A DNA stretch of 62,470 nucleotides, the filler included, from Candidatus Huberarchaeum crystalense (lineage in GTDB: Archaea; Huberarchaeota; Huberarchaeia; Huberarchaeales; Huberarchaeaceae): NCBI GenBank assembly GCA_002790315.1. It is 9 parts of 9 records of this genome, joined end to end, with 100 filler letters (N's around TTAATTAATTAA, not from the genome) between each part and the next. Parts side by side here need not be neighbours in the genome. Positions count along the whole stretch, not along the records: positions 39,230 to 42,525 come from PFUW01000031.1; 8 more parts are not named here. The stretch is one strand, 5' to 3'. The position numbers were made by a program, and so were the translations under genes. Shown here one piece after another: positions 1,843 to 58,233 of this stretch. Under the pieces are notes generated by a model. The model did no database searches and had not been told where the DNA came from. It was given only the letters and a program-made list of their open reading frames with translations. Within the stretch, counting starts at the first letter, position 1. Every line of letters begins with the position of its first letter.

Positions 1843-2065
1843 ATATTATTTATATAATTGAATATAATTATTTAAAAAGTGTATAAATAAAAAAAATAAT
1901 ATTTTAGACCAAAAATATTAATAATAAAAAGCATTGAAGTATTGAGGTATGCGCACATATTATCAAAAAATTTCTTTAATTTTTATATTTTGAGTTTTAG
2001 ATAAAAACAAGATGGCGCGCTCCTTTTTTCCTTACCTTATTCACATCTATATCCAAAAACTTTAA

Positions 2066-2139
2066 GGGGTTGTAGGATAACTTGGTTAGTCTTCTGGCTT
2101 TGGGAGCCAGCGATCCCGGTTCAAATCCGGGCAATCCCA
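2066..2139 (+). tRNA. tRNA-Pro(TGG)
   Basis: Acceptor GGGGTTG/CAATCCC, anticodon arm CTGGC-TT-TGG-GA-GCCAG, T arm CCCGG-TTCAAAT-CCGGG. Confidence 0.95.
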
Positions 2140-2202
2140 CCTATTACTTTGCTTTATAATGTCTTGCCTTCACAATTCTCAGTATATAACTAAAAACAAA
2201 CT

Positions 2203-2883
2203 ATGTCTCAAAAATTTGCGCAGATCATTAAAAAACTCAAAATATCTGCCAATCCTCTAACAATTAAAGGAATGACTCGATTTGGCATTTCAGGAAATAA
2301 TATGCTTGGTGTTAAGGTGCCTATTCTTCGAAAAATGGCGCGCAAACTTGGCCACAACCATCAACTTGCTCTTGAACTTTGGGAGTCAGGCATTCATGAG
2401 GCGCGCATATTAGCGAGTATGATTGATGAGATAAAAAAAGTTAGTGAAAAACAGATGGATATATGGGTAAAGGATTTTGATTCTTGGGATGTTTGCGATC
2501 AAGTTTGCTTGAATTTGTTTTGGCAACACAGGTCAGCTTATAAAAAGGCAATTAAATGGACAAATGCTAAAAACGAGTTTGAAAAAAGAGCAGGATTTGC
2601 GCTAATAGCAGTCCTTGCAGTCAAAGATAAAAAAGCCAATGATTCAAAATTTGAAGAGTTTTTGACTGTCATTGAAAGAGCACCAACAGACAAAAGAAAT
2701 TTTGTTAAAAAAGCAATGAATTGGGCACTTCGCCAAATTGGAAAACGCAACAAAGAGCTGAACAAAAAAGCAATTGCAACTGCAAAAAAAATACAAAAAA
2801 CAAACTCTAAAATTGCAAAATGGATTGCAAACAATGCAATAAAAGAGTTAGAGAGTGATATAGTTCAAAATAAATTAAACTAA
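2203..2883 (+). CDS. alkD: DNA alkylation repair protein, AlkD family
   Basis: LGVKVPILR, LWESGIHEARILA, FDSWDVCD, DKRNFVKKAMNWALRQIGKRN motifs. Confidence 0.9.
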   Translation: MSQKFAQIIKKLKISANPLTIKGMTRFGISGNNMLGVKVPILRKMARKLGHNHQLALELWESGIHEARILASMIDEIKKVSEKQMDIWVKDFDSWDVCDQVCLNLFWQHRSAYKKAIKWTNAKNEFEKRAGFALIAVLAVKDKKANDSKFEEFLTVIERAPTDKRNFVKKAMNWALRQIGKRNKELNKKAIATAKKIQKTNSKIAKWIANNAIKELESDIVQNKLN

Positions 2884-2903
2884 AAAACACCTTCAAAAAA
2901 TAT

Positions 2904-4247
2904 ATGAACCTTTTTGAGTTGCAAAAACTAAACGAAAAATACAAATGTTTTATAACTATTAACAAAAACTTTGAGCAAGAAGCAGAATTGTCAAAATCAA
3001 CACAAAAACCCTTGAGTAAATGGTATTTTTCAGTTAAAGATAATATTTGCACAGCAGGCTTACAAACCACAGCTGGCTCTAAAATTCTCGAAAATTATAT
3101 TCCTTCTTTTGATGCGACTGCAATTAAGAGAATAAAAAATGCAGGCGGGATTATTATTGGAAAAACAGCTCAGGATGAATTTGGATTTGGAAGTTTTTCA
3201 ACAAACTGCGCTTTTGGCGCGCCAAAAAATCCACATTCTCTTGAAAGAGTAACAGGTGGCTCGTCTGGTGGTGGTGCTTGTGCTACTGCTTTGCTTGAAG
3301 ACAATCATATTGCAATCGTTGAATCAACAGGCGGTTCAATTTCTTGTCCTGCTAGTTTTTGTGGTGTAATAGGATTAACTCCAACTTATGGGAGAGTTTC
3401 GCGCTTTGGTTTGATTGATTATGCATCTTCACTTGATAAAATAGGAATTATGGCTAAAAGTATTGAAAAAATTGCTCTAACTCTACAGATTATTGCAGGA
3501 AAAGACGAAAAAGAAGCAACAAGCTCTGAATTGCCTGTTCCAAACTATCTTGAAAAATTAAAAAAACCACCAAAAAAATTTAAAATCTGCCTGCCAAAAG
3601 AATATGTTGAGGGAATTGACCCCAAAATCGTTGAAATCATAAAAAACACTTTAAAAAAAATCAGTGATTTTGTTGAAGTTGAGGAAATTAGTTTACCTAT
3701 GACAAAATATGCCTTGCCTGTTTATTATATTTGCGCTATGGCAGAAGCAAGTACTAATTTGGCAAAATTCTGTGGATTGCGTTATGGTATGGAAAGCGAA
3801 AAAAAGGACAAAAAATACGACGCTTATTTTACAGAAATAAGAAGCAAATATTTTGGTGAAGAAGCCAAACGTCGCATTATTTTAGGAACATTCATACGGT
3901 CTGAGGGTTATGAGAGAAAATTTTATTTGCGCGCAATGAAAATTCGAACTTTGATTATTAATGAATTCAAAAACGCTTTTAAAAAATGCGATTTAATTAT
4001 TGCACCAACAATGCCATTTATTGCTCCATGCTTTGATGAAGTTGAAAAATTAACACCTCTTCAAAATTATCAAGCAGATATTCTTACAGTTGCTCCAAAT
4101 CTCGCAGGAATTCCAATGATTTCTTTACCTGTTGAGAAAATTAGTGGCTTGCCTGTTGGACTTCACGCAATGGCAAATTTTTTCAATGAAGAAAAACTGT
4201 TGCAATTTGCACAACTTCTTGAGAAAGAGAAATTGTTGGTATTTTAG
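2904..4247 (+). CDS. gatA: Asp/Glu-tRNA amidotransferase subunit A
   Basis: Amidase signature VKDNI, GGSSGG, STGGSI; NLAKFCGLRYG; FGEEAKRRIILGTF. Confidence 0.92.
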   Translation: MNLFELQKLNEKYKCFITINKNFEQEAELSKSTQKPLSKWYFSVKDNICTAGLQTTAGSKILENYIPSFDATAIKRIKNAGGIIIGKTAQDEFGFGSFSTNCAFGAPKNPHSLERVTGGSSGGGACATALLEDNHIAIVESTGGSISCPASFCGVIGLTPTYGRVSRFGLIDYASSLDKIGIMAKSIEKIALTLQIIAGKDEKEATSSELPVPNYLEKLKKPPKKFKICLPKEYVEGIDPKIVEIIKNTLKKISDFVEVEEISLPMTKYALPVYYICAMAEASTNLAKFCGLRYGMESEKKDKKYDAYFTEIRSKYFGEEAKRRIILGTFIRSEGYERKFYLRAMKIRTLIINEFKNAFKKCDLIIAPTMPFIAPCFDEVEKLTPLQNYQADILTVAPNLAGIPMISLPVEKISGLPVGLHAMANFFNEEKLLQFAQLLEKEKLLVF

Positions 4248-4281
4248 GGTAGATTAAAACAAAAATAATTATAATTTAATT

Positions 4282-5241
4282 TTAACTTTTANNNNNNNNN
4301 NNNNNNNNNNNNNNNNNNNNNNNNNNAACATTTTTAAGTTTTGTGCGAAGTTTTTCCTGTGTTTTTTCAACTTCTTTTTCTGCTTTTTTAATTATTTCGC
4401 TTACTTTATTGTGCAAATCCTCATAATGCTTTGCTGAAAAATTGAATTTATTTGCCTCTTTCTCTATTTTTTTATAATCTTGAAAAAGCTCTTCAATTGT
4501 TGCGATATCTTGTTCTGAAAACAAAGTTATGTTTTTCTTCATATTTTTTAATATTTGTGGGGTATCCTTAGGCAATCCAGGATAAATATTTTTAGAAAGA
4601 ATGACTGCTTGCACTGCTTTGATCATTGCCCAATATAGCGCGTCAATTGCTTCTTTAATTTTGTGCTGACTCATTTCCATAAATCCTTTTCCTACATAAA
4701 ACATGTTTATAATTCCTTCTTCTGAAGGTATAATTTCTCCGCGCAACAAGAGTTCTTTAAAAGGTACAAAGAAACCTGTTTCATAAATTGCAATGCCTGA
4801 ACGCAAAACATTTATAACAACAGGATCTGTGTTTTTTACTCCTTTCCAAAATTCAGTTAGCCCAACAACATTTGAGTGAATTGGTCGCTGTGTTTTTGTC
4901 TCAACAAGCACTTCTGCTTTGTATTTTTCAACACCAAGATCAAAAGAGCTTTTTATAGATGAGGTAAATGGAATGTTTATGTCATTTACAATAATCAACA
5001 CATCAATATCACTATCAGCAGTGTGTTTGTCTGTAGTAAATGACCCAAAAAGAATGACTGCTTGAACAAAATTATGATATGATTCTACTAATTTTTCTGC
5101 GAATTTATGAATAACAATCCCTTCTTTTATTCTAAGAACTTCGCTTGACACAGGTGATTGAGGCACACTAAACTCTAAATTTTCTTTTTTTGGTCTTTTA
5201 GTTTCCTTTTTTTTAACTATATTTTCAACCTTTTCAATCAT
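4282..5241 (-). CDS. Minimal nucleotidyltransferase fused to a HEPN-like helical domain
   Basis: ILFGSF..DSDIDVLII pol-beta motif, then AIDALYWAMIKAVQAVIL helix. The C-terminus crosses an N gap. Confidence 0.75.
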   Translation of the reverse strand: MIEKVENIVKKKETKRPKKENLEFSVPQSPVSSEVLRIKEGIVIHKFAEKLVESYHNFVQAVILFGSFTTDKHTADSDIDVLIIVNDINIPFTSSIKSSFDLGVEKYKAEVLVETKTQRPIHSNVVGLTEFWKGVKNTDPVVINVLRSGIAIYETGFFVPFKELLLRGEIIPSEEGIINMFYVGKGFMEMSQHKIKEAIDALYWAMIKAVQAVILSKNIYPGLPKDTPQILKNMKKNITLFSEQDIATIEELFQDYKKIEKEANKFNFSAKHYEDLHNKVSEIIKKAEKEVEKTQEKLRTKLKNVXXXXXXXXXXXXKS

Positions 5242-5464
5242 ATAATATTTATTATAGTATTTATAATTATAATTTATACAAAAATAAATATAACTTTGTG
5301 AATATTTTATTTTGTGTTTTGCTTTGTTAGCATAAAAAATACATTGCTTAAACCTTGTGAAAAAAAGGTGAATATTTTATTTTGTGTTTTGCTTTGAAAA
5401 ATACTTCTTTAACTATTGGTTTTAATAAACTATTCTAAAACATAGTATTTGAAAATTCTTTTGA

Positions 5465-6829
5465 TTAATTTTTAATATTTTTTACAACTTCTGTAAAAGA
5501 CAACATTTTTTCATCCTTTGAATCCAAATTTCTAAGAGTATATTTGTTTTCTCTCAACTCTTTTTCTCCAACAATTAGTGCAAACGGAATCTGCTCTTTA
5601 TTAGCATAGTCAAGCGCGCCTTTGAGTGATTTCTCAAACTCAATAATACATTTTATTCCTTCTTTTCGCAGCAAGGTTGCGATCTCTAAGCATTTTTTCT
5701 GGGTGTTGATAGAAATTATTAAAATTTTTGGAATTTTATCCTTGCTATTGATAAATATTTTTAAGCCCTTTTCTTTTAATGCTGTGAAAATTACATCTAA
5801 TCCGAAAGTTAGTCCTGTTGCTGGGTATTCTCTTTCACTTTGCAAAAATTTGCTTATCATTTTATCCCATCTACCGCCAGCAGAAATTGAACTCTTGATT
5901 TTAGAATTCTTTAAAAAAACCTCGCACACAAAGCCAGTATAATAACCAAGTCCGCGCGCCAAAGTTGGAGTGAAAATAATATCCTTATTTATGCCAAAAT
6001 AAGAACAATATTTAAAGAAATTTTGAAGATCTTCAAGCCCTTTCTGAGCTAAAGTATTATTTAATTTTTCTTTGAAAAAAATCAGTTTATCTTTGTTTGT
6101 CTGTTTTGTATTTGCAGTTTTAAGCAATAAAAATAAGGTATTAACCACATTTTCTGAAATTTCTTTTTCAAACAATTCTTTTTTAACATATTCCTCGCCA
6201 AACTTCTCAAGTTTGTCCAAAGAAAGAGCAACACCTGCAAACTTTTCAGACCCAACCCCACAAAATTCAAACAATCCAAAAAGAAAGTTTTTGTCGCTAA
6301 TTTGAACAAAAATAGGCAAGCACAGTTCATCAAAAACACTAAAAATTAAAGATATAAGTTCAGCGTCTGCTATTACTGATTTTATCCCAACAACATCAAC
6401 ATCACACTGTGTAAATTCTCTAAGTCGCCCTGGTTTTATTGGTCCGTCTCTAAAAACTTTTCCTATTTCATATCTTTTGAAAGGCAGTCTAAGGTTAGGA
6501 TTTAAGCCAAAAAGTTTTGCGAGTTTAAATGTTAATTCATATCTTAAGCATAATTCGCGCGCGCCTTGATCTTTAAGGTTATATGTCTCTTTTAGAATTT
6601 CTTCGCCACCCGCGTATTTGTTTGCCGCAACGTTGTAGTATTCTAAAATGCTTGTTTCAATTGGCTTAAACCCATAAATTTTGAAATTCTTTTTTAGAAT
6701 ATCTATAATCTTTTCCCTAACTATTTGCTCTTCTGGCAAGTACTCAGGAGTTCCTTTAAGTTGTTGTAATCGCTGATTTTTTTCAAAACTTTGAGTTGTA
6801 CAAAAATCATTATTTTCACTCTTTTCCAT
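5465..6829 (-). CDS. hisS: Histidine--tRNA ligase
   Basis: KGTPEYLP, LRYELT, VFRDGPIKPGRLREFTQCDVD, ARGLGYYTG, GGRWD. Start moved to ATG 6829 because the longer ORF overlaps tRNA-His. Confidence 0.95.
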   Translation of the reverse strand: MEKSENNDFCTTQSFEKNQRLQQLKGTPEYLPEEQIVREKIIDILKKNFKIYGFKPIETSILEYYNVAANKYAGGEEILKETYNLKDQGARELCLRYELTFKLAKLFGLNPNLRLPFKRYEIGKVFRDGPIKPGRLREFTQCDVDVVGIKSVIADAELISLIFSVFDELCLPIFVQISDKNFLFGLFEFCGVGSEKFAGVALSLDKLEKFGEEYVKKELFEKEISENVVNTLFLLLKTANTKQTNKDKLIFFKEKLNNTLAQKGLEDLQNFFKYCSYFGINKDIIFTPTLARGLGYYTGFVCEVFLKNSKIKSSISAGGRWDKMISKFLQSEREYPATGLTFGLDVIFTALKEKGLKIFINSKDKIPKILIISINTQKKCLEIATLLRKEGIKCIIEFEKSLKGALDYANKEQIPFALIVGEKELRENKYTLRNLDSKDEKMLSFTEVVKNIKN

Positions 6830-7256: not shown

Positions 7257-7356
7257 NNNNNNNNNNNNNNNNNNNNNNNNNNNNNNNNNNNNNNNNNNNN
7301 TTAATTAATTAANNNNNNNNNNNNNNNNNNNNNNNNNNNNNNNNNNNNNNNNNNNN
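7257..7356. other. Artificial contig spacer (N44-TTAATTAATTAA-N44)
   Basis: The same 100-nt spacer occurs at 13000-13099, 21851-21950, 39130-39229, 42526-42625, 46361-46460, 50530-50629 and 58102-58201. The 12-mer places stops in all six frames. Confidence 0.97.
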
Positions 7357-12999: not shown

Positions 13000-13155
13000 N
13001 NNNNNNNNNNNNNNNNNNNNNNNNNNNNNNNNNNNNNNNNNNNTTAATTAATTAANNNNNNNNNNNNNNNNNNNNNNNNNNNNNNNNNNNNNNNNNNNNA
13101 TTTGATTGTAATTCCTTGCTACAACCACAACACACAACCTTTATTTTTTCTTTAT

Positions 13156-21469: not shown

Positions 21470-21850
21470 TTATAATTTTATAGATTGGTTAAATAATTTT
21501 TCATATAAACCCTCATTTAATTTATTATATATTATACCTAAATTTTCATAACAGTTTGACTCGCCTGCTTTATCCCCAATTTCTTTAGCAATTTTCAGGG
21601 AATTTTCAAGAAATACTATTGCTTTTTTGAAATCACCTAAATCATCATAAGCAACACCTAAATTTGTATAACATTTTGACTCGCCTGCTTTATCTCCGAT
21701 TTCTTTCTTAATTTTTAGGGAATTTTTATGGTATTCAATTGCTTTTTTGAAATCACCTAAATAATAGTAAGCAATACCTAAATTTGTATAACACATTGAC
21801 TCATTTGGTTTATCCCCTATTTTTTTAAAAATTTTCAGGGAAATATTATA
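21470..21850 (-). CDS. Tetratricopeptide-repeat protein, 5' end in gap
   Basis: 40-aa (120-bp) repeats GDKAGESKCYTNLG...LGDFKKAI. Confidence 0.9.
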   Translation of the reverse strand, partial: YNISLKIFKKIGDKPNESMCYTNLGIAYYYLGDFKKAIEYHKNSLKIKKEIGDKAGESKCYTNLGVAYDDLGDFKKAIVFLENSLKIAKEIGDKAGESNCYENLGIIYNKLNEGLYEKLFNQSIKL

Positions 21851-21950
21851 NNNNNNNNNNNNNNNNNNNNNNNNNNNNNNNNNNNNNNNNNNNNTTAATT
21901 AATTAANNNNNNNNNNNNNNNNNNNNNNNNNNNNNNNNNNNNNNNNNNNN

Positions 21951-35730: not shown

Positions 35731-38700
35731 TTAAATAACTCTCAACACCTTGCCATCTAAGTCAAGAATTATTTCATGTTTTTTATCTTTTGTTAAAACG
35801 CGAATATATTGTTTGCTTTGATAATCAAATTGGCTCGCAACTAAATCAGATGTTGAGACCTTAATACCTTTTGATGCAAGGGCAGATGCAGCGATTGTGA
35901 TTAATTTTGTTCGATCTAAAACAGAAGCAGTTTTATCAGTAGATTTGTCTACTCCTTTTTTTGTAAGTTTTGCTATTGTGTTGTTTAATGCATCTTTGAT
36001 TTTTCCAATTGATAGTGCTTTATTATTTATAAATTCTTTTATTCCTCCTCTTTCTTTTATCTTCTCTATCAAAGACAACGCTCCAAGAATTGCCCCAAAA
36101 ACCAAAGCCAAAATAATTATAATCTGCGAAAGCAAACATACACTTATAATTATCGCAGCTATCAAAGGAACAATTAAAACAGCGAGAAGTATTGCAATAT
36201 AAGGAATATTCTCTTTTTCAAATAAATTTGCAATCGCCTGTTTTGGATTTGATTTTAGATCTTCAAAAGAAATAGGCAAACTGAAGTTCGCTTTTTTCTT
36301 TATTAACAAATATGCAAAAAATGTTGATAAGAGTGTAAAAATGAGCAACAAAATCCAAGCAAGGGTATTAGGAATACAAGCAAATATTAGATAATTACAT
36401 TTATCGCACTCGCTAGTTTTATCTCTTCCTACCAAACCATCTGTACCACAATCTACCACACAAAAACTTTTTTCATCTTCATCGCATATACCGTCGCCGC
36501 AATATTTTCCATCTATTTTACAAAAACCGCAATCAACAGTACAAGTTTTACAACTTTCTCCAACAGAATAATCACATTTTCCGTCGCCNNNNNNNCCGTC
36601 GCCGCAATAAGAACCACTACAATCACCACAATCAGATGGACAACTTCGACAGCTTTCTACCCCTAAATCACAAATCCTATTACCACACAAAAAGGCTCTT
36701 TGTTGTTCTAAAAGTTGCTGAAGTTCGCCTGCTGATATTGTTCCTCCTCTTGTAGTTGCACTATCTCCTCCAATCTCTTCTGTCTTTGGTTTGCAATCCT
36801 TAGGACAATCTTCATTTATACCACAAATTCCATCGCCGCAAATACAAGAAATAGAAGTAATTGTAAACATAACACCACACTCTCCTGAATCATCACTGAC
36901 TTTGCAATAATTCTCACCCCCACAACTTTTGTTAAGTTTAATATTATAAGTATTTACACTATTTATATAGAACTTTCCGCCAAGATATAAAGATTCCCAC
37001 TTTATATTGCTGCCCACTTTCCACCAACCATCTATTGCAGATGATTCTGCTTTTATTGAAAATAATGTTGTTTGTCCTACTGCTTTTTCTGCAATTTCTT
37101 CTATATTAGCATAAGTAGCAACACAAACTAAAAAAGATGCACTTTGACTTTGTGAGACACATTTAGGATTTACATCTTTATTGTTAGCATATGTACAAAT
37201 TTCATAAGTGGTTTTCTTACAAGATGTTGAGCAAGTTGATTCTTGACTATCTATTATTCCATTGCAGTTATTATCTAGATTGTTATTACAATTTATTGGT
37301 TGTGGATTTTTGCCAATGCAAGGGCCCCAAATCCCATCCGCACAAGTTTGAATTCCATCCTTACATATACCTTGTTTTGTTGTATCTGTGCAATTTCGAT
37401 GTTCTTTGTTCTTACATTCGCATCCTTCATCTATTGTTCCATTACAGTTATCATCTACTTCATTGCAGATTTCTGTTGCTCCTGGATGAATTGATGCATT
37501 GCTATCATCGCAGTCTGTGTTGTCTGTTGTATATCCTGATGAGCAAGCAGAAATGGTTTGAGCTATTGAATCTGTTGCGTTTCCATAGCCGTCGTTGTCA
37601 GCATCTTTGTAGCAAGTATAAGTATGAGGTTTACCAAGGTCACAATTTTCATCAACTCTACCATTGCAGTTATCATCTATAACATTGCAATTACTATCTT
37701 CACTGCTTGATCCAGGATATATAGTACTAGAACTATCATCACAATCAGTATTATCTCTTACATATCCACTTGGAATTGTTGCATTGTTGATTTGAGTTGT
37801 GTTAATAAATGGATTTCCATAGCTGTCATTATCAGCATCTCTATAAAATATATAAATTATATTTATCTGTGCCTTTGATACCTCACTTGTTTCATTAGTA
37901 TAAGTAGATGTTGCGTTCGCTGCATATGTTTTGACTGCTTCAGTATTGTTGGCTTCAAAAATTGTTTGTGTTTTTATAATTATATTACAATTTGTTAAAC
38001 TAGCCAGAGAAAGATTCCAATTGCATTTATTTGTTGTTGTATTGCAACCACCAACAAAATTAGCACAAGTAGAAGATATATTTATTATATCTAATTTAAA
38101 GTCATACATATCCCTTATTGTCAAATCATCTGCTATATCACCATTATTTTTCAAAGTAATATTATAAATTATCTCATCTCCAACTTTTACTGGCTCAGAA
38201 GAATAAGTAATATTTTTTGTTAATGTTGTGTTCGGGCTATTTACATCCAATATACTTATCCCGCTTGCTGAAATGATTGGGTTAAACTGACCTGTTGCAA
38301 TAACAACATTAATTATTTTATTTATAGGTAATACATCTTGCTGCTGTTGATTTAGATCTATTTTTTCCTTTAATAAAGAGATACTATTTTTTTTCTTATT
38401 GTTATCAGCAATTGTATCAAGTTGCTTATCTATTTTATCTTCTATTATTTCTTTTGTTTTCTTATCGCTATTTTTATATTTGGTCGCAGAAAGATCATTA
38501 TATTTTACAGTATAATTGACTTCAAAAGTGGTGCTTTTGCTCGCATTTAAGCGCGCGATGTTCTGAGACCAATTAAGCAAACCGTCAACAACAGTAATAT
38601 TTGTTAATGGAACATTGCCTGTGTTATTTATCTTAATAGTATAAGTAATATTTCCCCCAACTTTTGCTTTTTGTTTATCAGCTGTTTTTAAAATATTAAG

Positions 38701-39129
38701 ACCTAAATTAGCAACAATTATTGTATTATTTGGCGTACAATAATAAGTTCCATTATTGCCCTTTCCGTCGTTCATTGGCGAGTCAGCGCAAGGGCATTCC
38801 CACTTTGCTGGCGCACATTTTTGTTTATAAAATTCCCCTGAACCATCAAAACAACGATCTGCTAATGATATGTTTATGCAGTTCTTGTTTTGACATTCAT
38901 AATTTGCTGTGCAGGTGTTATCATCTGCTTTCTTTGTCTTAATTTTATGACTTGAATCACAGTAATGTGTTGAGTTGTATTCTGCAGTTGCATTAACGCA
39001 TTCCCAACTGCTTGGATGACATTTTCCATCATTCATGCAGTTGTTGCTTGTGCATTGCTCGTTTGCTGTGCAAGTTGAGTTATTTGGTTTTTTTGCTTGG
39101 CAAGTATGAGATGTGTTGCAGAATTGAGT
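35731..39129 (-). CDS. Giant Cys-rich membrane-anchored surface protein (DUF11-like Ig modules, DCDD...IHPGA.E.C repeats, CGDGxC repeats); 5' end in gap
   Basis: Frame is open to the contig edge; ITYTIKINNTGNVPLTNITVVD; YRDADNDSYG; DCDDSNASIHPGATEICNEVDDNCNG; three C-terminal TM helices. Confidence 0.85.
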   Translation of the reverse strand, partial: TQFCNTSHTCQAKKPNNSTCTANEQCTSNNCMNDGKCHPSSWECVNATAEYNSTHYCDSSHKIKTKKADDNTCTANYECQNKNCINISLADRCFDGSGEFYKQKCAPAKWECPCADSPMNDGKGNNGTYYCTPNNTIIVANLGLNILKTADKQKAKVGGNITYTIKINNTGNVPLTNITVVDGLLNWSQNIARLNASKSTTFEVNYTVKYNDLSATKYKNSDKKTKEIIEDKIDKQLDTIADNNKKKNSISLLKEKIDLNQQQQDVLPINKIINVVIATGQFNPIISASGISILDVNSPNTTLTKNITYSSEPVKVGDEIIYNITLKNNGDIADDLTIRDMYDFKLDIINISSTCANFVGGCNTTTNKCNWNLSLASLTNCNIIIKTQTIFEANNTEAVKTYAANATSTYTNETSEVSKAQINIIYIFYRDADNDSYGNPFINTTQINNATIPSGYVRDNTDCDDSSSTIYPGSSSEDSNCNVIDDNCNGRVDENCDLGKPHTYTCYKDADNDGYGNATDSIAQTISACSSGYTTDNTDCDDSNASIHPGATEICNEVDDNCNGTIDEGCECKNKEHRNCTDTTKQGICKDGIQTCADGIWGPCIGKNPQPINCNNNLDNNCNGIIDSQESTCSTSCKKTTYEICTYANNKDVNPKCVSQSQSASFLVCVATYANIEEIAEKAVGQTTLFSIKAESSAIDGWWKVGSNIKWESLYLGGKFYINSVNTYNIKLNKSCGGENYCKVSDDSGECGVMFTITSISCICGDGICGINEDCPKDCKPKTEEIGGDSATTRGGTISAGELQQLLEQQRAFLCGNRICDLGVESCRSCPSDCGDCSGSYCGDXXXGDGKCDYSVGESCKTCTVDCGFCKIDGKYCGDGICDEDEKSFCVVDCGTDGLVGRDKTSECDKCNYLIFACIPNTLAWILLLIFTLLSTFFAYLLIKKKANFSLPISFEDLKSNPKQAIANLFEKENIPYIAILLAVLIVPLIAAIIISVCLLSQIIIILALVFGAILGALSLIEKIKERGGIKEFINNKALSIGKIKDALNNTIAKLTKKGVDKSTDKTASVLDRTKLITIAASALASKGIKVSTSDLVASQFDYQSKQYIRVLTKDKKHEIILDLDGKVLRVI

Positions 39130-39452
39130 NNNNNNNNNNNNNNNNNNNNNNNNNNNNNNNNNNNNNNNNNNNNTTAATTAATTAANNNNNNNNNNNNNNN
39201 NNNNNNNNNNNNNNNNNNNNNNNNNNNNNTGCGTTCTCTATTGTATTATATGTATTATATCCTGTTTTGTATAACATTTTGTTTTTCCTTAGGGAAAGAT
39301 TTTTACTTTCCCATAAAATATTTAATATATTAAACATAGTTATTCAAAAAAGATAATAACTTAAAACCTCAAATCTTGTATAAATAATATATATGATGTC
39401 TTTTATCAGAGATGATAATTGACTGAGTTTAGATATACATTTATCAATGAAG

Positions 39453-42401
39453 CAAATACATCTATATATACACATATAACATTTTCTAAAAAATGTTTAT
39501 ATAATTTACACGAAGTGTAAAATGTGCATATAAAAGTTTGTAAAACAAACTTTTCTCGTTAATTTCTGCAAAGCTGTTTGTTGGATTGTTAGGTTTATGC
39601 AACGATGAAGGGCGTGGCAAGCTGCGATAAGCTGAGAGAAGGTGCAAGCAACCTATAATTCTCAGATTCCTGAATAAGCATACTTATACTCATTGAGTAT
39701 ATTTCGTAAGAAAAGTCAACGCACAGAATTGAAATATCTTAGTACGTGCAGGAAAAGAAATCAAAAGAGATGCTGTAAGTAAGTAGACTGAAATCAGCAC
39801 AGGGCAAACTGAATCTGAAAAGAGATGTGGTGAGACATAAGGAAAACACAAGAATAATAAACTTGTTTGGAACAACAGATGATACAGGGTGATAATCCCG
39901 TAATTATTTGCGTGTTTTTCTGTCTTAAAGAGTATATTTGGTTTGAATTCCAGATAGAATGGGGGTTATTAACCTCCAACCCTAAAAATTAGCATAAAAC
40001 CGATAGCAAAAAGGTAGCGTGAGCGAAAACTGAAAAGATCTCTTGGTAGAGGGTGAAAAGTACATGAAAGCAAGCAGTGATAGTAAGTCAAAGTATGAAA
40101 GAGAATGTAAAATTCTCAATATTTTGGCGTTCGTTCTGGATAACGAGGCAAGGACTTGGTCTTAGCGGCAAGCTGAAAAGCGTAGCGAAAGCAAGTGTGA
40201 AAGTGCGTTTAGTCGTTAGGGCCTGACCTGAAGCCGGGCGATCTATTCTTGAGTAAGATGAATGGGAGTATATAACTTCCTTGAGGTCTGAAGGTATTTC
40301 TAGGGAGATGCTATAACTTAAGAATAGGAGCAAAATACCAATCGAGCTCGGCGATATCTGGGTCCATCTGAAAGATCCCATAGGATCGTTTTATTGTAGA
40401 ATTATTTTTGTAGAGAAACTGATTGAGTCGCCTCGGAGAGAAATCTCTAGCACTCTGTCAAACTCCGAATAGAATAATTTGTTCAATAGAAAGGAGGCGT
40501 TCGGGATAAACTTGAACACCAAAAGTGGAACAAAACACCCTAAAGTTAAGGTCCCAAAATAGCATCTAAGTGAAAAAGATTTTATTTTTCTAAAACAGCG
40601 AGGATATAAGCTCAGAAGCAGCTATTATCTAAGGAGTGCGTAACAGCTCACTCGTCTAGAAAAATAAAATCGACAACGGGACTAAGGTGCTTACCGATAC
40701 TTTAGTTCTTTTGCTGTAAAGCAATTGAAGATAGGATGGCGTGGTGATGGGGGAGAAGTTGGGTCGTAAGATCCAATAGACCTGTCACTAGTGAAAATCT
40801 TGCCGATAGTAGCAGAAATTAGCGTGAGAATCGCTAAGGTCTTAAGGGATAGGATTTCTTCCCAATGATCATCAAGGAAGAGTTAGTCGGTCTTAAGAAA
40901 AGGCATAATTTGCCGTATCAAAAAGGAAATAGGTTAATATTCCTATACTTGTGCACTACACGCGGCAACGCAAGGTGTAGTTTTGACAAATTAGGCAACC
41001 CTTTTGCAAACGCATTTGATAATACTCTGGAGAGTTGCAATAACGAGAAGGAGTAAAAAATAATGTGGCCTCGCAAGAGGTATAGGGTGCGCCAAGTTTT
41101 CTTAAAAAGAAACTGCGCAAGAATGTGCATAAACCGTACCAAAACCTTTACAGGTTCCCTGGCTGAGAATGCTAAGACCGTCGTGTTAATTTTGCAGAAG
41201 GAAATAAGCAAAATAGTTCTGTATCTTAGGTATAAAGAATGCCCTTGCTTGCGAAAGTGAGGGTCTATGTAAAAAGATCTGCTGGACTGTTTAACAAAAA
41301 CACAGGTGGCTGCTAAGTAGTAATGCTTTGTATAGCCGCCGACGTCTGCCCAGTGGGAGTGTGTTAAAGCTGGTTTCAACCAGCCTAAGCCCTTCTAAAC
41401 GGCGGGATTATTTTTGAGTCTCTTAAGGTAGCGAAATCCATTGTTATTTGATTGATGACATGTCTGAAGACGTAACAAGGTAGATGCTGTCTTCTGCATA
41501 AACGCGGTGAACACACTTTTTCATGTGTAAAAGCTGAAGAATTTCGATGGGACGAGAAGACCCCATGGAGCTCTGCGGCAATCTGATGTTATAAATTGTT
41601 CTTAGGTGTTTAGAATAGGAAGAAAGCTTCGAAGCAATTTCGCTAGAAATTGTAGAGCTGACAGTGTAATACTTCCCACTTAAGAACAGTTTGTTTATCC
41701 AGAAATGGAAACAGCTTTAGATGGGCCGCTCGACTGGGGCGGGAAACTGTTAAAAAGATATCAACAGTGTCCAAAGGTCAGCTTAAGAGGTTTAGAAATC
41801 CTCTGAAAAGTACAAAGGCAAAAGCTGATTTGACAGGATTCTGCATAGTAAGGAATCCTGGGACGAAAGTCCGGCTTAGAGAACGGTATGTGTATATTAA
41901 TAATTGCATACCCTAACAGAAAAGCTACCCTGGGGATAATTAGGCTGTCTTGGGAGAGAGTACATATCGACCCCAAGGATTGCTGTTTCGCCTTCAACTC
42001 TGAGTTTCCTGGCAGTGCAGTAGCTGCCAAGGGTGCGGGTGCTAACCAATTAAAACTCATCGTTAGTCGGGTTCATAACGGCGCGAGCCAGTTAGGTTTC
42101 TATCTGTCGAGATTGTAGTTATCTGAGAGTAACGGAATCATAGTACGAAAGGAACAGATTCTGGACGCCAACTGTGTATTGGTCATCGAAAGGTGTTTTG
42201 CCAAGTAGCAGCGCGTTATATGAATAAGAACTGAAAGCATCTAAGTTCGAAGTCATCCTTAAAAATAGATAACTGAGATCCTTGTAAATGACGAGGTTAA
42301 TAGGACACGAGTGTAAATATTGTAAGATATTAAGCTAAGTGTTACTAAGTTCTCAAATAAATTAACGAGATTTACATATGCAGTATATATAGATGTATTT
42401 G
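39453..42401 (+). repeat. Long-range inverted repeats flanking 23S (processing stem)
   Basis: 39453-39471 pairs perfectly with 42383-42401 (19 bp); 39525-31 with 42376-82; 39554-65 with 42359-70. Confidence 0.85.
39560..42365 (+). rRNA. rrl: 23S rRNA, divergent, not linked to 16S or 5S
   Basis: GATGAAGGGCGTGGCAAGCTGCGATAAGC near the 5' end, GTPase centre AGAAGCAGC..GCGTAACAGCTCA, TAAGGTAGCGAAA, P-loop GACTGGGGCGG, GAGTACATATCGAC, CTGAAAGCATCTAAG. Ends approximate. Confidence 0.97.
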
Positions 42402-42626
42402 TGAAGATGAATTATTTTTACAGAATAAGTAGAGTTGACACTTTTCTTTAATTGCTATTATCTATTTTATCTAAATATGATTAAAGTTTTTTATTGCTTA
42501 CAATACTTATATTGTCATTGTTGTTNNNNNNNNNNNNNNNNNNNNNNNNNNNNNNNNNNNNNNNNNNNNTTAATTAATTAANNNNNNNNNNNNNNNNNNN
42601 NNNNNNNNNNNNNNNNNNNNNNNNNA

Positions 42627-43163
42627 GGACCTAATAATAAAAATATAACAGGATACTCTGTTTCTTTTACTGATATAAAGAAGGGTAAAAAAACTATATA
42701 TTATGTTAAGAATAATAAAACAAATATATTTCCTTTTGAGCATTTTGAGCAGGGAGATGAGCCGGGATATTTAGTACCTACAGAACCTATGTTGGGATTT
42801 CCTGATGGGATAGAAACAAAAGATAAAGAAGGTGGTAACACCTCAGTTTTTTCTCCTGTTATAGAAAAAGGTAGTGACATATCGACACGTACTTATTGTT
42901 ATAGAAGTGGTAGTTGTAAAACAGACTCAGACAAAACACAGGACAAGATAACACCAGACAATACAGGGTTTGGAAATGAAACAACAGGGTATCAGGGACC
43001 TCCAGATAAAAACAATGTAGATATAAATAATTCAAATAGAGAAGGAGGGATAACACTAGACAATACAGAGTTTGGAAATGAAACAACAGGGTATCAGGGA
43101 CCTCCAGATAAAAACAACGTAGATATAAATAATTCAAATAGAGAAGGAGGGATAACACTATAA
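42627..43163 (+). CDS. C-terminal fragment of a probable extracellular protein with a 34-aa (102-bp) duplication
   Basis: Frame open from the contig edge; DNTxFGNETTGYQGPPDKNNVDINNSNREGGITL twice (42956, 43058). Confidence 0.65.
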   Translation, partial: GPNNKNITGYSVSFTDIKKGKKTIYYVKNNKTNIFPFEHFEQGDEPGYLVPTEPMLGFPDGIETKDKEGGNTSVFSPVIEKGSDISTRTYCYRSGSCKTDSDKTQDKITPDNTGFGNETTGYQGPPDKNNVDINNSNREGGITLDNTEFGNETTGYQGPPDKNNVDINNSNREGGITL

Positions 43164-43171
43164 AAGTAAAA

Positions 43172-46100
43172 ATGGCTGAAGAAAAATTTTTAAAAAATTT
43201 CGTGCTTTTTGTGGCTTGCTTGTTAGTTTTAGCTTTTTTTTCACAGGCAGCAAGTGCATATTACAATACTACAAATTATTTTATTGATGCTAACACAAAT
43301 CAATCAATAAATAATGTGACAATTATTGTTTATAACTGTTCAAATATAAATTGTAGTGTTCTTGGTAATAAGCTACTAGATAGAAATATAAATAACGGTT
43401 TTCAAATAAACTATTCATTTAATAATATACCTTATGGTTATGCAGTTTATCTTATAAAAGAAGGTTATTTACCTCTAGGAATAAATGGAAAAAATAGAAC
43501 AGATGGAACATATACTACAACCCCTATTTTATTTAAAGAATATTATAAAGAACAATATGTTGGTAATGTTAATGGAACTTTTTACAAAACTTTTGATACT
43601 TGCGCATCTCCTATTCAAAATAATTATATAATTCTTTCAAACACAAGTCCATCAATAGGACAATCGATTCAAATAAATGCAACTATTAAAAGCGCGCGCA
43701 CAGACACAACCCCCCGTTATCCAGAACCACCAGAACTTTTTTCATATTACTCAGCACCAGTCAATGTAACCCTAAACATTAAAAATTCAACAGGCAACAT
43801 TATTTACACAAATCAAACAACAACATCACCAATTTACCAAGACACTAACCTAACAATCTCATTTAATTATGTTATCCCTTCAACTGCTGCTCCAGGAACT
43901 TACACAGCAGAAATTGTGACTTTACCTATTGATTCTGCTTGTTTAACTCCGCAAACAAGAACAGCCAGCACAACTTTTACAATTCAAAGTGTTTGTGGAG
44001 ATAGTATTTGTAGTAGTGATGAGACAACTTTAACTTGCCCTGCTGATTGTGGATGCCCAAATAATCAAATCTTTGTCAACGGAGTTTGTGTTGATAATTG
44101 CATTGATGCTGATGGCGATGGTTATGGTGTTTGTCCAAATTGTAACACAACAAGCGGATGCACTTATGATGGAAACGATTGCGATGATAACAATGCAAGC
44201 ATTCATCCAGGAGCAACAGAAATCTGCAATGGGGTAGATGACAACTGCAATGGTCAAATAGATGAAAACCTAGCTCAAATATGCACAGCACCAAACAATT
44301 GCATAGGAACACAAACATGCACAGTAGGAAAATGGTCAAATTGCATAACAACACTCAACAACTGTGACACAAACTGCGATGGCATAAATGACATCTGCCA
44401 AGAAAATGCGTGCACACTATGCAACTGCACAACAGGACAAACACAAAATTGCCCACTACAACAAGGAGTTTGCGCAGGAGCACAACAAACATGCACACAA
44501 GGAGTATGGGGTATTTGTGATTATGGATCTAAGTATAATGAAACAGAGATTTGCGGCGACAATTTAGATAATAACTGTAATGGTGAAATTGACGAAAGAT
44601 GTATTTCTGCTAAAATTGAATCAATAGCAATTACTCCCGCTATTTCTATTTGTAAGGGTATATCTCCTGAAATTCAGATTTGCATAAGAAATACTGGAAT
44701 AGGGCAAGATTGGTTTAGTATAGGTCTTACTTTATATTCTCCAAATAACCTATCTGCAAAAATAGATATTCAATCCCAAATTATTGAAAATGTTAACTCA
44801 AATGTTGTTTGCAAATCTTTTACAAGTCAAAATGCTGATTTTTTGATATATAATAGTGAAAATCCAAATTATCAAAATAATAGTATTGTTGATTTTAATG
44901 AAATTGGAACTTGGAAATATGTTATAAAGTTGTGGCCACAAGATCCAGAAAACAATCCAGACCAAGTTCATCTTGACAACGCAACAGAAAGCATATTTTA
45001 TAAATGGGACAATAGCTGCCTTGGTTTTTGCCAAAATGAGTGTGCTGATAAAGGAACAAAAGCATGTGGACTTGAAAATGGACAACCAATAATTTTGGAA
45101 TGTCAAGCAGACAACAAGGGCTGTTTAACTTATGTTAAAATTCAAAACTGCTCGCAACTCCAATGTGATTCTGCACAAACAGAAAATAGTTGCTCTGGAA
45201 CTAACTTTACAAGTATAATTACCCCCACATTTCCCGCTTGCAGGGCTGCAAATATTTTAATTAGTGAAACAAATCCACAACTCATACTTGAAGTTGATGC
45301 TTCCTTATCAGCTTGTTTTTGCACAACAGGAGCTCCCCAAACAACAATTATTCATTGCGATGATGGTTTATTTTGCAATGGCCAAGAAACATGCGATTCA
45401 ACAAAAGGATGTCAAGCAAATAATACTCCTGTATGTAGTGAAGGTTATATATGCAATGAAACCTCAGATTCTTGTGTACAAATAGGAGAATGTGTTTCTG
45501 ATAGTGATTGTATATCTATGAGTAACTCTTGCAACACAGGAATTTGCAACCAAACAATATGGCGATGTCAAGCAAATCCAAAACCAGCAGGAACAACATG
45601 CAATGATGGCTTATTCTGCACAATAAATGATACTTGCAACAGTGAAGGAATATGTACAGGAACACAAAGAGACTGCTCAGATAACATTGACTGCACAGTT
45701 GATATTTGCAATGAAAGTATGGGTTCTTGCATTAACACAGAAAATAACTCTTTATGCAGCGCAGGACAAGTTTGTGACAAATCCCGAGGTGGATGTGTTT
45801 GCATTCCTCACTCATCGCAAAAATGCATTGAAAATGTTATTTATTGGTTTAACTCTTGCGAAACACAGGAAACTTTAAACAAAACTTGTCAAGGACCTTA
45901 TTGCAATAACTGGGGCGCAAATTACTGCAAAAATAATAATATTTATCAAAATAGAACTTGCTTTGCAGGCCAGCAATGTACTGAAAGTGAAAACACCGCT
46001 CATTGTGTGAGCTTGTCTGCAACAGATTTTGAAGAACAAAAATTGCAAGTTTGTAAATATGGTTGTTTGAATGGCGAGTGTCTTGCTTGTGTTGTCAATT

Positions 46101-46360
46101 TAACAAACACAAGTTGGACCTTAATTTCAAGTTCAGCTTGTTTGTGTAGTAATCTAATTGAGCACAATTACACAAGAACGCAATATGACAGCAACTTTTG
46201 TAATATAGTGGAAAATCAGACATTTGCAAAGACAAATTACACATTCTGTGATTTCTGCACTCCGAACATGACAAACACATCATGGAGTGAATGGTACAAC
46301 ATAACAACATGCAATTCATCTGATCAATTAATTCAGCAAAGAAACCGCACTGAATATGAT
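43172..46360 (+). CDS. Giant secreted Cys-rich protein; 3' end in gap
   Basis: Signal peptide, Ig-like segments, DADGDGYG, DCDDNNASIHPGATEICNGVDDNCNGQIDE, CDDGLFCNG and CNDGLFCT repeats. Confidence 0.85.
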
Positions 46361-46724
46361 NNNNNNNNNNNNNNNNNNNNNNNNNNNNNNNNNNNNNNNN
46401 NNNNTTAATTAATTAANNNNNNNNNNNNNNNNNNNNNNNNNNNNNNNNNNNNNNNNNNNNTACTTAATAATTTTTGGTTTATTTGGAAGAGTTTATGCCC
46501 AGAGCCAAAGCAATAAATAAAACATATTTATGAGTGGATATGATTGATGATAAATTGACTGGTTTTAACTATATGTAGTATATTAACTAATTTTTAATAT
46601 TTGTTTCTTTAATAAAGGTTTGCTTTTATTTTTTATGTTAGCTTGTTTAATTTTACAAATGTCAAAGCAAAGAAATTATTTTTAACTTAATATTATCCTG
46701 TTTTTTGCTCTAAAATAATTTAAG

Positions 46725-50529: not shown

Positions 50530-50867
50530 NNNNNNNNNNNNNNNNNNNNNNNNNNNNNNNNNNNNNNNNNNNNTTAATTAATTAANNNNNNNNNNNNNNN
50601 NNNNNNNNNNNNNNNNNNNNNNNNNNNNNTTGCAAACTTTATAAATCTCCTGCCTTACAGGGGATTTAATACAGAAAAGTAAAAACTCTTCTATAATGTC
50701 TTTTAGCAAGGTAGTTTAAAAAGGGCGCGCAATTTAGAGATGCATTACGAAAACAGCATCATTTTTAGATAAATTATGCTAATATTTACATTTAAAAACA
50801 TCATATTTTGAATCCAAAACAAAAACATATCTTTGCATTTCTTTTTAAAAACTGCAAAAAACACAAA

Positions 50868-51992: not shown

Positions 51993-52012
51993 AATATATT
52001 TGTAATAATTTG

Positions 52013-52148
52013 GTTGATGTGTGAATTGTAAAATTAGTGTAAACTAAAATTAGTTGGTGCGTAAATTGTAAAATTAGTTAGTTGATGTGTGAATTGTAAA
52101 ATTAGTGTAAACTAAAATTAGTTGGTGCGTAAATTGTAAAATTAGTTA
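52013..52148. repeat. 68-bp tandem duplication built of AAAATTAGT subrepeats
   Basis: Copies start at 52013 and 52081 and fill the region between divergent genes. Confidence 0.92.
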
Positions 52149-57930: not shown

Positions 57931-58233
57931 AATATATTGTGTAAATTTTCACATAAAATATTTTAAGTATTTTTCTTTGATTAGATGCGCGGTTGTGTAT
58001 AGCGTATTTATACAATATATGTTAAATAGGCGCGGCAAAAAAAGACAAAAAATCACAAGAAGTTTCTGCACAACAAGTATTTAAAAATAAGGCGCGCGCC
58101 CNNNNNNNNNNNNNNNNNNNNNNNNNNNNNNNNNNNNNNNNNNNNTTAATTAATTAANNNNNNNNNNNNNNNNNNNNNNNNNNNNNNNNNNNNNNNNNNN
58201 NTGTAAGCAATAAAAAACTTAATCCTACTCAAA

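Follow-up and report, generated by a model that had tools for sequence, protein, structure and literature searches.

The large-subunit (23S) ribosomal RNA (rRNA) gene of the archaeon Candidatus Huberarchaeum crystalense raises the question of how far the peptidyl-transferase centre (PTC) can be altered in a ribosome that still works. The PTC is held to be the most conserved of all functional RNAs, and positions 2452, 2503-2505 and 2576 (Escherichia coli numbering throughout) define the binding site of several classes of antibiotics. The gene is contained in a 62,470-nucleotide stretch of DNA from assembly GCA_002790315.1, here called the window. An earlier note, made from the sequence of this window, had described changes at these positions and proposed a natural gene of functional appearance with a remodelled A-site pocket. 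The reading favoured here, which is probable though well short of certain, is that the gene encodes the sole working large-subunit (LSU) rRNA of a low-G+C archaeon of groundwater that evolves very fast, and that the PTC has an unchanged catalytic core in a shell rebuilt by coupled changes.

39557-42367, plus strand: archaeal large-subunit (23S) rRNA gene, 2811 nucleotides (nt), 40.4% G+C (Rfam RF02540)

The gene matches the Rfam model LSU_rRNA_archaea (RF02540) over model positions 1-2987 with 1929.9 bits, the cut-off being 50. Three weaker matches of the same clan at this locus were dropped in favour of RF02540, and the Rfam scan of the 62-kb window found no further archaeal LSU. The rrlH gene of E. 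coli K-12 (L001:260-3163) was used as the numbering reference, and the LSUs of Natrinema thermotolerans and Halomicrobium mukohataei (plasmid-borne; L010, L011) served as haloarchaeal references. The rrlH sequence was aligned to window positions 41888-42138. The alignment runs without a gap from E. coli position 2432 to past 2629, and the gapless numbering used in the earlier note (position equals window coordinate minus 39488) therefore stands. The length between the fixed anchors UCG (2500-2502) and CUC (2510-2512) is unaltered. The ungapped reading of 2497-2509 appears to be the most economical one; an insertion plus a deletion within 2503-2505 would yield identical letters. The core of the molecule is free of large deletions; the losses, of 6-37 nt, lie in peripheral helices. 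A blastn search with domain V against E. coli genomes returned no match.

The states of the PTC were read from the pairwise alignment with rrlH and from a covariance-model alignment. The altered elements are as follows.

41935-41942, plus strand: PTC strand 2447-2454, which reads GAUAAUUA, with C2452U, A2453U and G2454A (alignments)
41985-41997, plus strand: PTC strand 2497-2509 with eight changes; U2500, C2501, G2502, U2506 and C2507 kept (alignments)
42035-42049, plus strand: helix 92 and A loop (2547-2561); U2552, G2553 and U2555 kept, U2554C and C2556A changed
42063-42068, plus strand: 3' strand of helix 90 (2575-2580) with G2576U, U2579 (pairs with A2509) and C2580 (faces A2508)
42074-42094, plus strand: U2586C and helix 93 with the compensated pairs U2588-A2606 and G2593-C2600; A2602 kept
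41530-41555, plus strand: second shell with G2032A (41530), A2055C (41553) and C2057A (41555; pairs with U2611 at 42099)
41410-41416, plus strand: helix 69 loop with A1913U, C1914U and A1916U
42147-42150, plus strand: sarcin-ricin tetraloop, GAAA replacing GAGA, with G2661A at 42149

All the changes listed in the earlier note are present in the alignments: C2452U (41940), A2497G, C2498U, C2499U, A2503C, U2504C and G2505U (within 41985-41993), G2508A and G2509A (41996-41997), and G2576U (42064). Beyond that list, the strand that carries C2452U also has A2453U and G2454A. The second shell has G2032A, A2055C (the archaeal reference is A) and C2057A together with G2611U, the region of the A loop has U2554C, C2556A and G2557A, and U2586C and U2580C are found elsewhere. 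Outside the PTC, A1913U, C1914U and A1916U alter the helix 69 loop and G2661A alters the sarcin-ricin loop. The helix 69 loop forms bridge B2a, a contact with the decoding centre, and both loops are normally extremely conserved. As the earlier note said, A2450, A2451, U2506, G2553, U2585, A2602 and the P-loop (G2251-G2253) are retained, and so are G2061, A2062, C2063, G2447, U2500, C2501, G2502, U2552, U2555, G2583 and U2584. The catalytic and CCA-binding set (A2451, U2506, U2585, A2602, G2251/2252, G2553 and G2583) is complete in this LSU.

The window is a stitched metagenome-assembled genome (MAG) with many runs of N, so that an assembly or sequencing artefact, or a chimera, has to be considered. 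This explanation is practically refuted, because the same sequence recurs without differences in six contigs from JGI and in Logan contigs that represent four runs, DNA as well as RNA, each from a different study. The six metagenome contigs (L003-L008) have 100% identity across all 3296 nt of the LSU contig. The public runs listed as containing a 7-kb query number 24, all of them from aquifers or groundwater (22 coded studies): 18 are DNA runs with a word share of 0.91-0.93 and 6 are metatranscriptomes with a word share of 0.38-0.40, which equals the LSU fraction of the query. Contigs from two DNA runs (X10 and X7) and two RNA runs (X19 and X21) were compared with the LSU contig. Each DNA run gave one 3164-nt contig without differences, flat in depth (153.7 and 35.5, respectively) and unbranched across the PTC. 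In X19 a single contig spans 39605-42364 with no differences, and in X21 there are five such contigs, one of which covers 40928-42295 at a depth of 1213. At the contig level, no alternative letters were reported in the four runs at the changed PTC positions. Variants within 41935-42100 occur only at 41950-41956, in low-depth contigs that have 11-16 mismatches per 66-83 nt and come from other organisms; contigs of other organisms (80% likeness) end at about 41984-42001. The earlier note had held that its claim would fall if reads did not support these bases. The bases are supported by independent DNA and RNA assemblies that are identical, as contigs rather than raw reads.

One side observation from the same comparison concerns window position 40626, which is T here and C in most contigs of other organisms in all four runs (8907 of 9061 depth in X10). 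It is a further normally conserved rRNA position that has changed in this lineage.

The gene is present as RNA.

39604-42364, plus strand: region matched by RNA contigs without differences, approximating the mature rRNA (X19 record 9, 39605-42364; X21 records 18 and 24, 39604-40200 and 40928-42295)

The depth of RNA in X21 is 1213-6428 across the gene. In both RNA runs the depth is 0 at 39230-39559 and 42420-42525, whereas the DNA runs have depths of 154-482 and 35-90 there. Because the flanks have DNA depth but no RNA depth, the RNA signal represents a transcript and not carried-over DNA. These data bear on the explanation that the gene is a non-translating copy (a pseudogene, or an rRNA with a regulatory or specialised role) and that translation depends on a canonical LSU encoded at another place in the genome. 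In its favour, the 3.3-kb contig with the LSU is in the MAG through binning only, unusual changes are seen in helix 92, helix 69 and the sarcin-ricin loop, and a variant rRNA has been proposed as a repressor in Plasmodium (bioRxiv 10.64898/2026.06.17.732804; here and below, papers are cited for the accessible portions of their text). The high RNA depth on the gene and zero on its flanks speak against a non-translating copy, as do the flat depth and lack of branching of the contig in two DNA runs, the lack of another archaeal LSU in the 62-kb window, and the pairing described below. Taken together, these make a non-translating copy quite improbable.

The flanks of the LSU are joined by a processing stem of 20 + 7 + 12 base pairs, with a cofolding energy of -68.9 kcal/mol.

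39452-39565, plus strand: 5' arms of the processing stem and helix 1, at 39452-39471, 39525-39531 and 39554-39565 (inverted repeats I3 and I18)
42359-42402, plus strand: 3' arms of the same stem, at 42383-42402, 42376-42382 and 42359-42370 (partners in that order)

The pairs of helices 89-93 were taken from the Rfam consensus structure and double changes were scored against the Natrinema LSU. Canonical pairs number 39 out of 43. Eighteen pairs are altered on both sides, and 15 of these 18 are still paired. The compensatory pairs A2509-U2579, U2588-A2606 and G2593-C2600, which had been proposed in the earlier note, are real in the alignment. The pair G2454-C2498, which extends helix 89 and is a true pair in crystal structures (PMC3488215, PMC4690841), has become A-U. 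C2452 and U2504, hydrogen-bonded in Haloarcula marismortui (PMC4652758), are exchanged to U and C. G2576 stacks on G2505 in other ribosomes (PMC11700844), and both are U here. A pair G2505-C2610 was considered as well; the literature consulted gave no confirmation of it, and it is not counted among these contacts. The pair 2057-2611 is A-U in this LSU, C-G in both haloarchaea and G-C in E. coli. On this pattern of pairing the LSU is under structural selection as an rRNA. Uncompensated loss of pairing and the lack of a stable transcript would mark a pseudogene; here most double changes are still paired, the RNA is abundant and the processing stem is intact. The same three observations (abundant RNA without its flanks, compensated helices and the stem) bear out the proposal of a natural, functional-looking gene with a remodelled A-site pocket. 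A ribosome with this pocket presumably translates.

The divergence is not confined to the PTC. Like the canonical haloarchaeal LSUs, this LSU belongs to the archaeal family, has the same architecture and possesses all helices of domain V. The Rfam score, however, is 1930 bits compared to 2823 and 2814 for the two haloarchaeal LSUs, both of which have a canonical PTC ring, and to 2877 for E. coli with the bacterial model. When the four sequences are aligned together, the window LSU shares 54.5% identity with that of E. coli and 56% with the haloarchaeal LSUs; identity between E. coli and the haloarchaea amounts to 59%. The columns that are identical in E. coli and both haloarchaea number 1495, and 429 of them are changed in the window LSU: 254 from GC to AU, 74 from AU to GC, 75 neutral and 26 deletions. 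The changes are spread evenly across the six domains (the per-domain counts derive from a first, separate alignment). In the PTC ring, defined as 2057-2063, 2447-2456, 2494-2507, 2582-2588 and 2606-2611, 12 of 35 such columns are changed, compared to 417 of the 1460 outside it (Fisher p=0.45). The term 'conserved' serves as a proxy derived from three reference sequences, and the figures published for a few positions are far stricter: in two reference sets C2452 is conserved to 100/100%, A2503 to 99.59/98.31% and U2504 to 99.59/98.43% (PMC7345174, Table 3). The suggestion that the PTC had been specially rewritten thus fails, as changes in the ring are no more frequent than in other conserved columns. 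As far as the alignment can tell, the ring is simply unspared by a molecule-wide, A+U-biased acceleration, and the altered helix 69 and sarcin-ricin loops agree with this.

The sequence of events would then be as follows. Fast evolution of the whole rRNA would have reached the PTC. The bases that carry out the chemistry or hold the CCA ends (A2451, U2506, U2585, A2602, G2251/G2252, G2553, G2583, and A2450 with C2063) are unchanged, and the shell that shapes the A-site cleft and the tunnel entrance would have been rebuilt in linked steps. The candidate steps are the conversion of C2452-U2504 to U-C, that of G2454-C2498 to A-U, and the replacement of both G2505 and the stacking G2576 by U; A2503 is C, and positions 2032 and 2055 of the second shell are altered too. 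The changes may have arisen mainly from A+U-biased drift followed by compensation rather than from selection on the pocket. Weaker binding of phenicols, oxazolidinones, anisomycin, sparsomycin and pleuromutilins would be a by-product.

Several observations weigh against this account and against a single working LSU. Four of the 12 ring changes oppose the A+U bias, so that drift alone may not suffice. Two contacts are uncompensated, A2453-U2500 having become U.U and G2508.U2580 having become A.C. Helix 92 is a weak point with a degenerate look: it has two canonical pairs out of five (the haloarchaea have four), its closing pair 2551-2557 is G.A and 2548-2560 is C.A. The altered loops of helix 69 and the sarcin-ricin region also look degenerate. 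Compensation was scored on three reference sequences, and the covariation is unreplicated across species. Contigs mask minority variants, and depth is a rough measure from which the exact copy number is unreadable. A second, canonical LSU that is too divergent to co-assemble with this one may exist, and abundance of the RNA is no proof that the rRNA resides in translating ribosomes.

A working ribosome is nevertheless plausible because several of the changed positions (A2497, A2503, U2504, G2505, U2586, U2554 and C2556) rank among the more mutation-tolerant ones in an in vitro screen of the E. coli ribosome (PMC7049736). Some of the changed states are known from resistance to PTC inhibitors. 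C2452U and C2499U confer resistance to sparsomycin in Halobacterium halobium (PMC13462262). C2452U was selected by tiamulin in Thermus thermophilus, and the same authors had earlier found it in selections with chloramphenicol (PMC7345174). U2504C is linked to resistance to linezolid and chloramphenicol (Nissley et al., bioRxiv 10.1101/2024.11.12.623245), mutation of G2576 is the main route to linezolid resistance (PMC11700844), and H. marismortui is made resistant to linezolid by G2032A combined with an alteration of 2499 (PMC4652758). The bases found in these laboratory mutants of Halobacterium, Haloarcula, Thermus and Staphylococcus, namely C2452U, C2499U, U2504C, G2576U and G2032A, are identical to those in the present LSU. 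The mutants have single or double changes, usually with a cost in fitness, whereas here at least five are combined as the wild type, and A2503C, G2505U and A2453U are added. Insensitivity to inhibitors of the A-site cleft is a probable by-product, the one basis for this being the identity with published resistance mutations.

The coincidence of natural states with resistance mutations also suggests an adaptive remodelling, in which the pocket was selected to escape natural PTC inhibitors or toxins of a host or competitor, while the divergence elsewhere would be incidental. The four ring changes that run counter to the A+U bias fit such a scheme. It is nonetheless unlikely, since the ring is no more changed than other conserved columns, unrelated centres (the helix 69 loop, the sarcin-ricin loop and the stem of the A loop) are altered as well, and neither a resistance phenotype nor a producer of inhibitors is known here.

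Natural divergence of the PTC was described recently, and the present gene is a more extreme case of it. In some Thermoprotei and Methanomethylicia as many as six PTC positions vary in the segments 2447-2453 and 2500-2504, and the cryo-electron microscopy structure of the Pyrobaculum calidifontis ribosome has rearranged base triples (10.1101/2024.11.12.623245). The same authors argue that a shorter archaeal uL3 loop allows PTC variation, with space for rearranged bases 2504 and 2572; a uL3 gene was absent from the window and from L003-L008. In both cases near-invariant positions are altered in a natural archaeal ribosome with intact catalytic bases, and the altered states match mutations known to confer resistance. 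Common to both are U2504C, the A-loop change U2554C and an altered 2453. Within the two segments of Nissley et al., 2452, 2453, 2503 and 2504 are changed here, whereas 2447, 2448-2451 and 2500-2502 are unchanged; of these 2447, 2500 and 2501 vary in their archaea. Position 2453 is U here and C there. Twelve ring positions are changed here, including 2452, 2454, 2497-2499, 2503 and 2505, and further changes lie outside the ring at 2576 and 2032. The accessible text of Nissley et al. contains no mention of 2503, 2505, 2576 or DPANN. U2554C and U2555C are rare A-loop variations in Thermoprotei (PMC9976906; also 10.1101/2024.11.12.623245); the present A loop shares U2554C, but U2555 is kept, C2556A and the G.A closing pair are added, and there is no link to heat. 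The settings differ, too: those archaea are hyperthermophiles, whereas this organism has a genome of 31% G+C from aquifer metagenomes and is uncultured. The 40% G+C of the LSU, the 31-34% G+C of the contigs and the aquifer or groundwater origin of the runs argue against a hyperthermophile. The rRNA of hyperthermophiles is G+C-rich.

The rarity of the altered PTC was examined with an exact pattern that requires CCU at 2503-2505 between conserved anchors on both sides and that misses partial states. Among 185,579 species, each represented by one genome, there are no true matches and one chance match (L002, without rRNA). Among 241 million metagenome records the pattern found seven stretches, which are the six identical LSUs and the same chance contig. 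A relaxed PTC pattern gave four chance matches in viral contigs, all without rRNA. In these collections, the CCU state belongs to one sequence type, and the reservation in the earlier note that such states might be common across archaea is not borne out for 2503-2505. No account of PTC divergence in DPANN, or of natural changes at 2503, 2505 or 2576, was found in the literature searched. Many MAGs lack rRNA genes, so that absence from databases is weak evidence. It is therefore conceivable, with somewhat less than an even chance, that the same or intermediate states are ordinary in a wider, poorly sampled archaeal lineage, an explanation that is compatible with a sole working LSU. That the molecule in its entirety sits on a long branch points to a lineage that is old and divergent. 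Relatives of this archaeon exist, because the closest listed homologue of the RtcB protein encoded beside the LSU is 79% identical to it and is found on a 76-kb NCBI contig. The pattern searches count against a trait of a whole clade.

The number of PTC changes is roughly double that of the hyperthermophile precedent (five or six), and they occur at other positions and in a low-G+C organism of cold water. There is an even chance that this is the most divergent natural PTC so far known from a free-standing cellular ribosome whose rRNA demonstrably accumulates, and that it functions with 2452 and 2504 swapped and with pyrimidines at positions 2503-2505 and 2576. If so, wholesale rebuilding of the A-site cleft and tunnel entrance is possible while the catalytic core stays as it is, and the gene offers a natural template for ribosomes insensitive to all inhibitors of the A-site cleft and for engineered active sites. 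If the ribosome translates, it reveals which parts of the pocket are truly indispensable and provides natural coupled changes (2452/2504, 2454/2498 and 2505/2576) that compensate for single mutations that are otherwise deleterious. Filters that remove 'pseudogene-like' rRNA, and universal probes or primers for this region, may then overlook such lineages.

The surroundings of the LSU have to be read from the metagenome contigs. The window consists of nine blocks joined by an artificial linker, N44-TTAATTAATTAA-N44, which has stops in all frames and is located at 7257-7356, 13000-13099, 21851-21950, 39130-39229, 42526-42625, 46361-46460, 50530-50629 and 58102-58201; 16 shorter runs of N lie within blocks. 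Since the window is not one molecule, arguments from synteny across the linkers are void. The large surface-protein genes on either side are not neighbours of the LSU, because the window concatenates contigs.

39230-42525: true LSU contig, 3296 nt, with linkers 39130-39229 and 42526-42625 on either side

The LSU belongs to the MAG by binning only. The MAG is archaeal, as it contains an S13-S4-S11-RpoD cluster and aminoacyl-tRNA synthetases; its histidyl-tRNA synthetase has a weak likeness to Woesearchaeota, and the RtcB encoded beside the LSU falls into bacterial or viral clusters. Contigs L003-L008 match exactly the 3296-nt span and then run on, giving the true context. Downstream of the LSU are, in order, a gene for a TPR-repeat protein, a gene of the L7Ae/L30e family with a duplicate of the LSU leader in front of it, a small open reading frame (ORF) and RtcB. 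The downstream flank has 30.7% G+C and the MAG blocks have 30.6-34.3%, a match that lends weak support to the binning.

The tandem repeats of 102 nt and the duplicated leader in L004-L008 were considered as an array of rRNA genes. This was rejected, as they represent TPR repeats and a promoter-like element in front of the L7Ae/L30e-family gene. The 102-nt repeats of L006 downstream of the LSU encode 34-residue TPR units of a 429-residue protein. The upstream region of the LSU, about 255 nt long (L006 1-255), recurs with 95% identity at L006 4520-4774, where it precedes the L7Ae/L30e-family gene that follows the LSU at a distance of 1.2 kb. In X10, positions 39230-39324 (its first 95 nt) total about three times the depth of the LSU (287.5 exact and 155.9 variant, compared to 153.7). 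The repeated region may be a promoter or leader common to the rRNA and a ribosomal-protein gene.

The flanks differ among the contigs. L004 (176-248) and L008 (607-681) have a tRNA near a duplicate of the LSU tail or leader, and L006 has an ORF of 143 codons there. In L004, 267-639 is repeated exactly at 4888-5260, a 373-nt duplication that comprises the LSU tail and the end of the TPR gene. Such differences among contigs with identical LSUs point to strain-level rearrangement around an invariant LSU.

RtcB (L006 5729-6901) shares 62-70% identity with 118 of the 120 best-listed proteins, the exceptions being itself and the one at 79%. The three listed entries with an NCBI organism name are all bacterial (Patescibacteria, Parcubacteria and Actinobacteria). 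The protein is either a very conserved enzyme or one that was exchanged between bacteria of the candidate phyla radiation and this archaeon.

On other blocks of the window, 35731-39036 (minus strand) and 43172-46408 (plus strand) encode proteins of about 1100 residues with metal-binding motifs of the MopE type, one of which also has DUF11/DUF7507. The two genes lie on separate MAG contigs and share a 90-nt stretch that is 87% identical (37426-37515 and 44177-44266); by their sequences they are probably paralogous surface proteins. Tandem repeats in the window are found at 42947-43160 (102 nt, inside ORF 42789-43163), 21536-21849 (about 120 nt) and 52004-52148 (68 nt).

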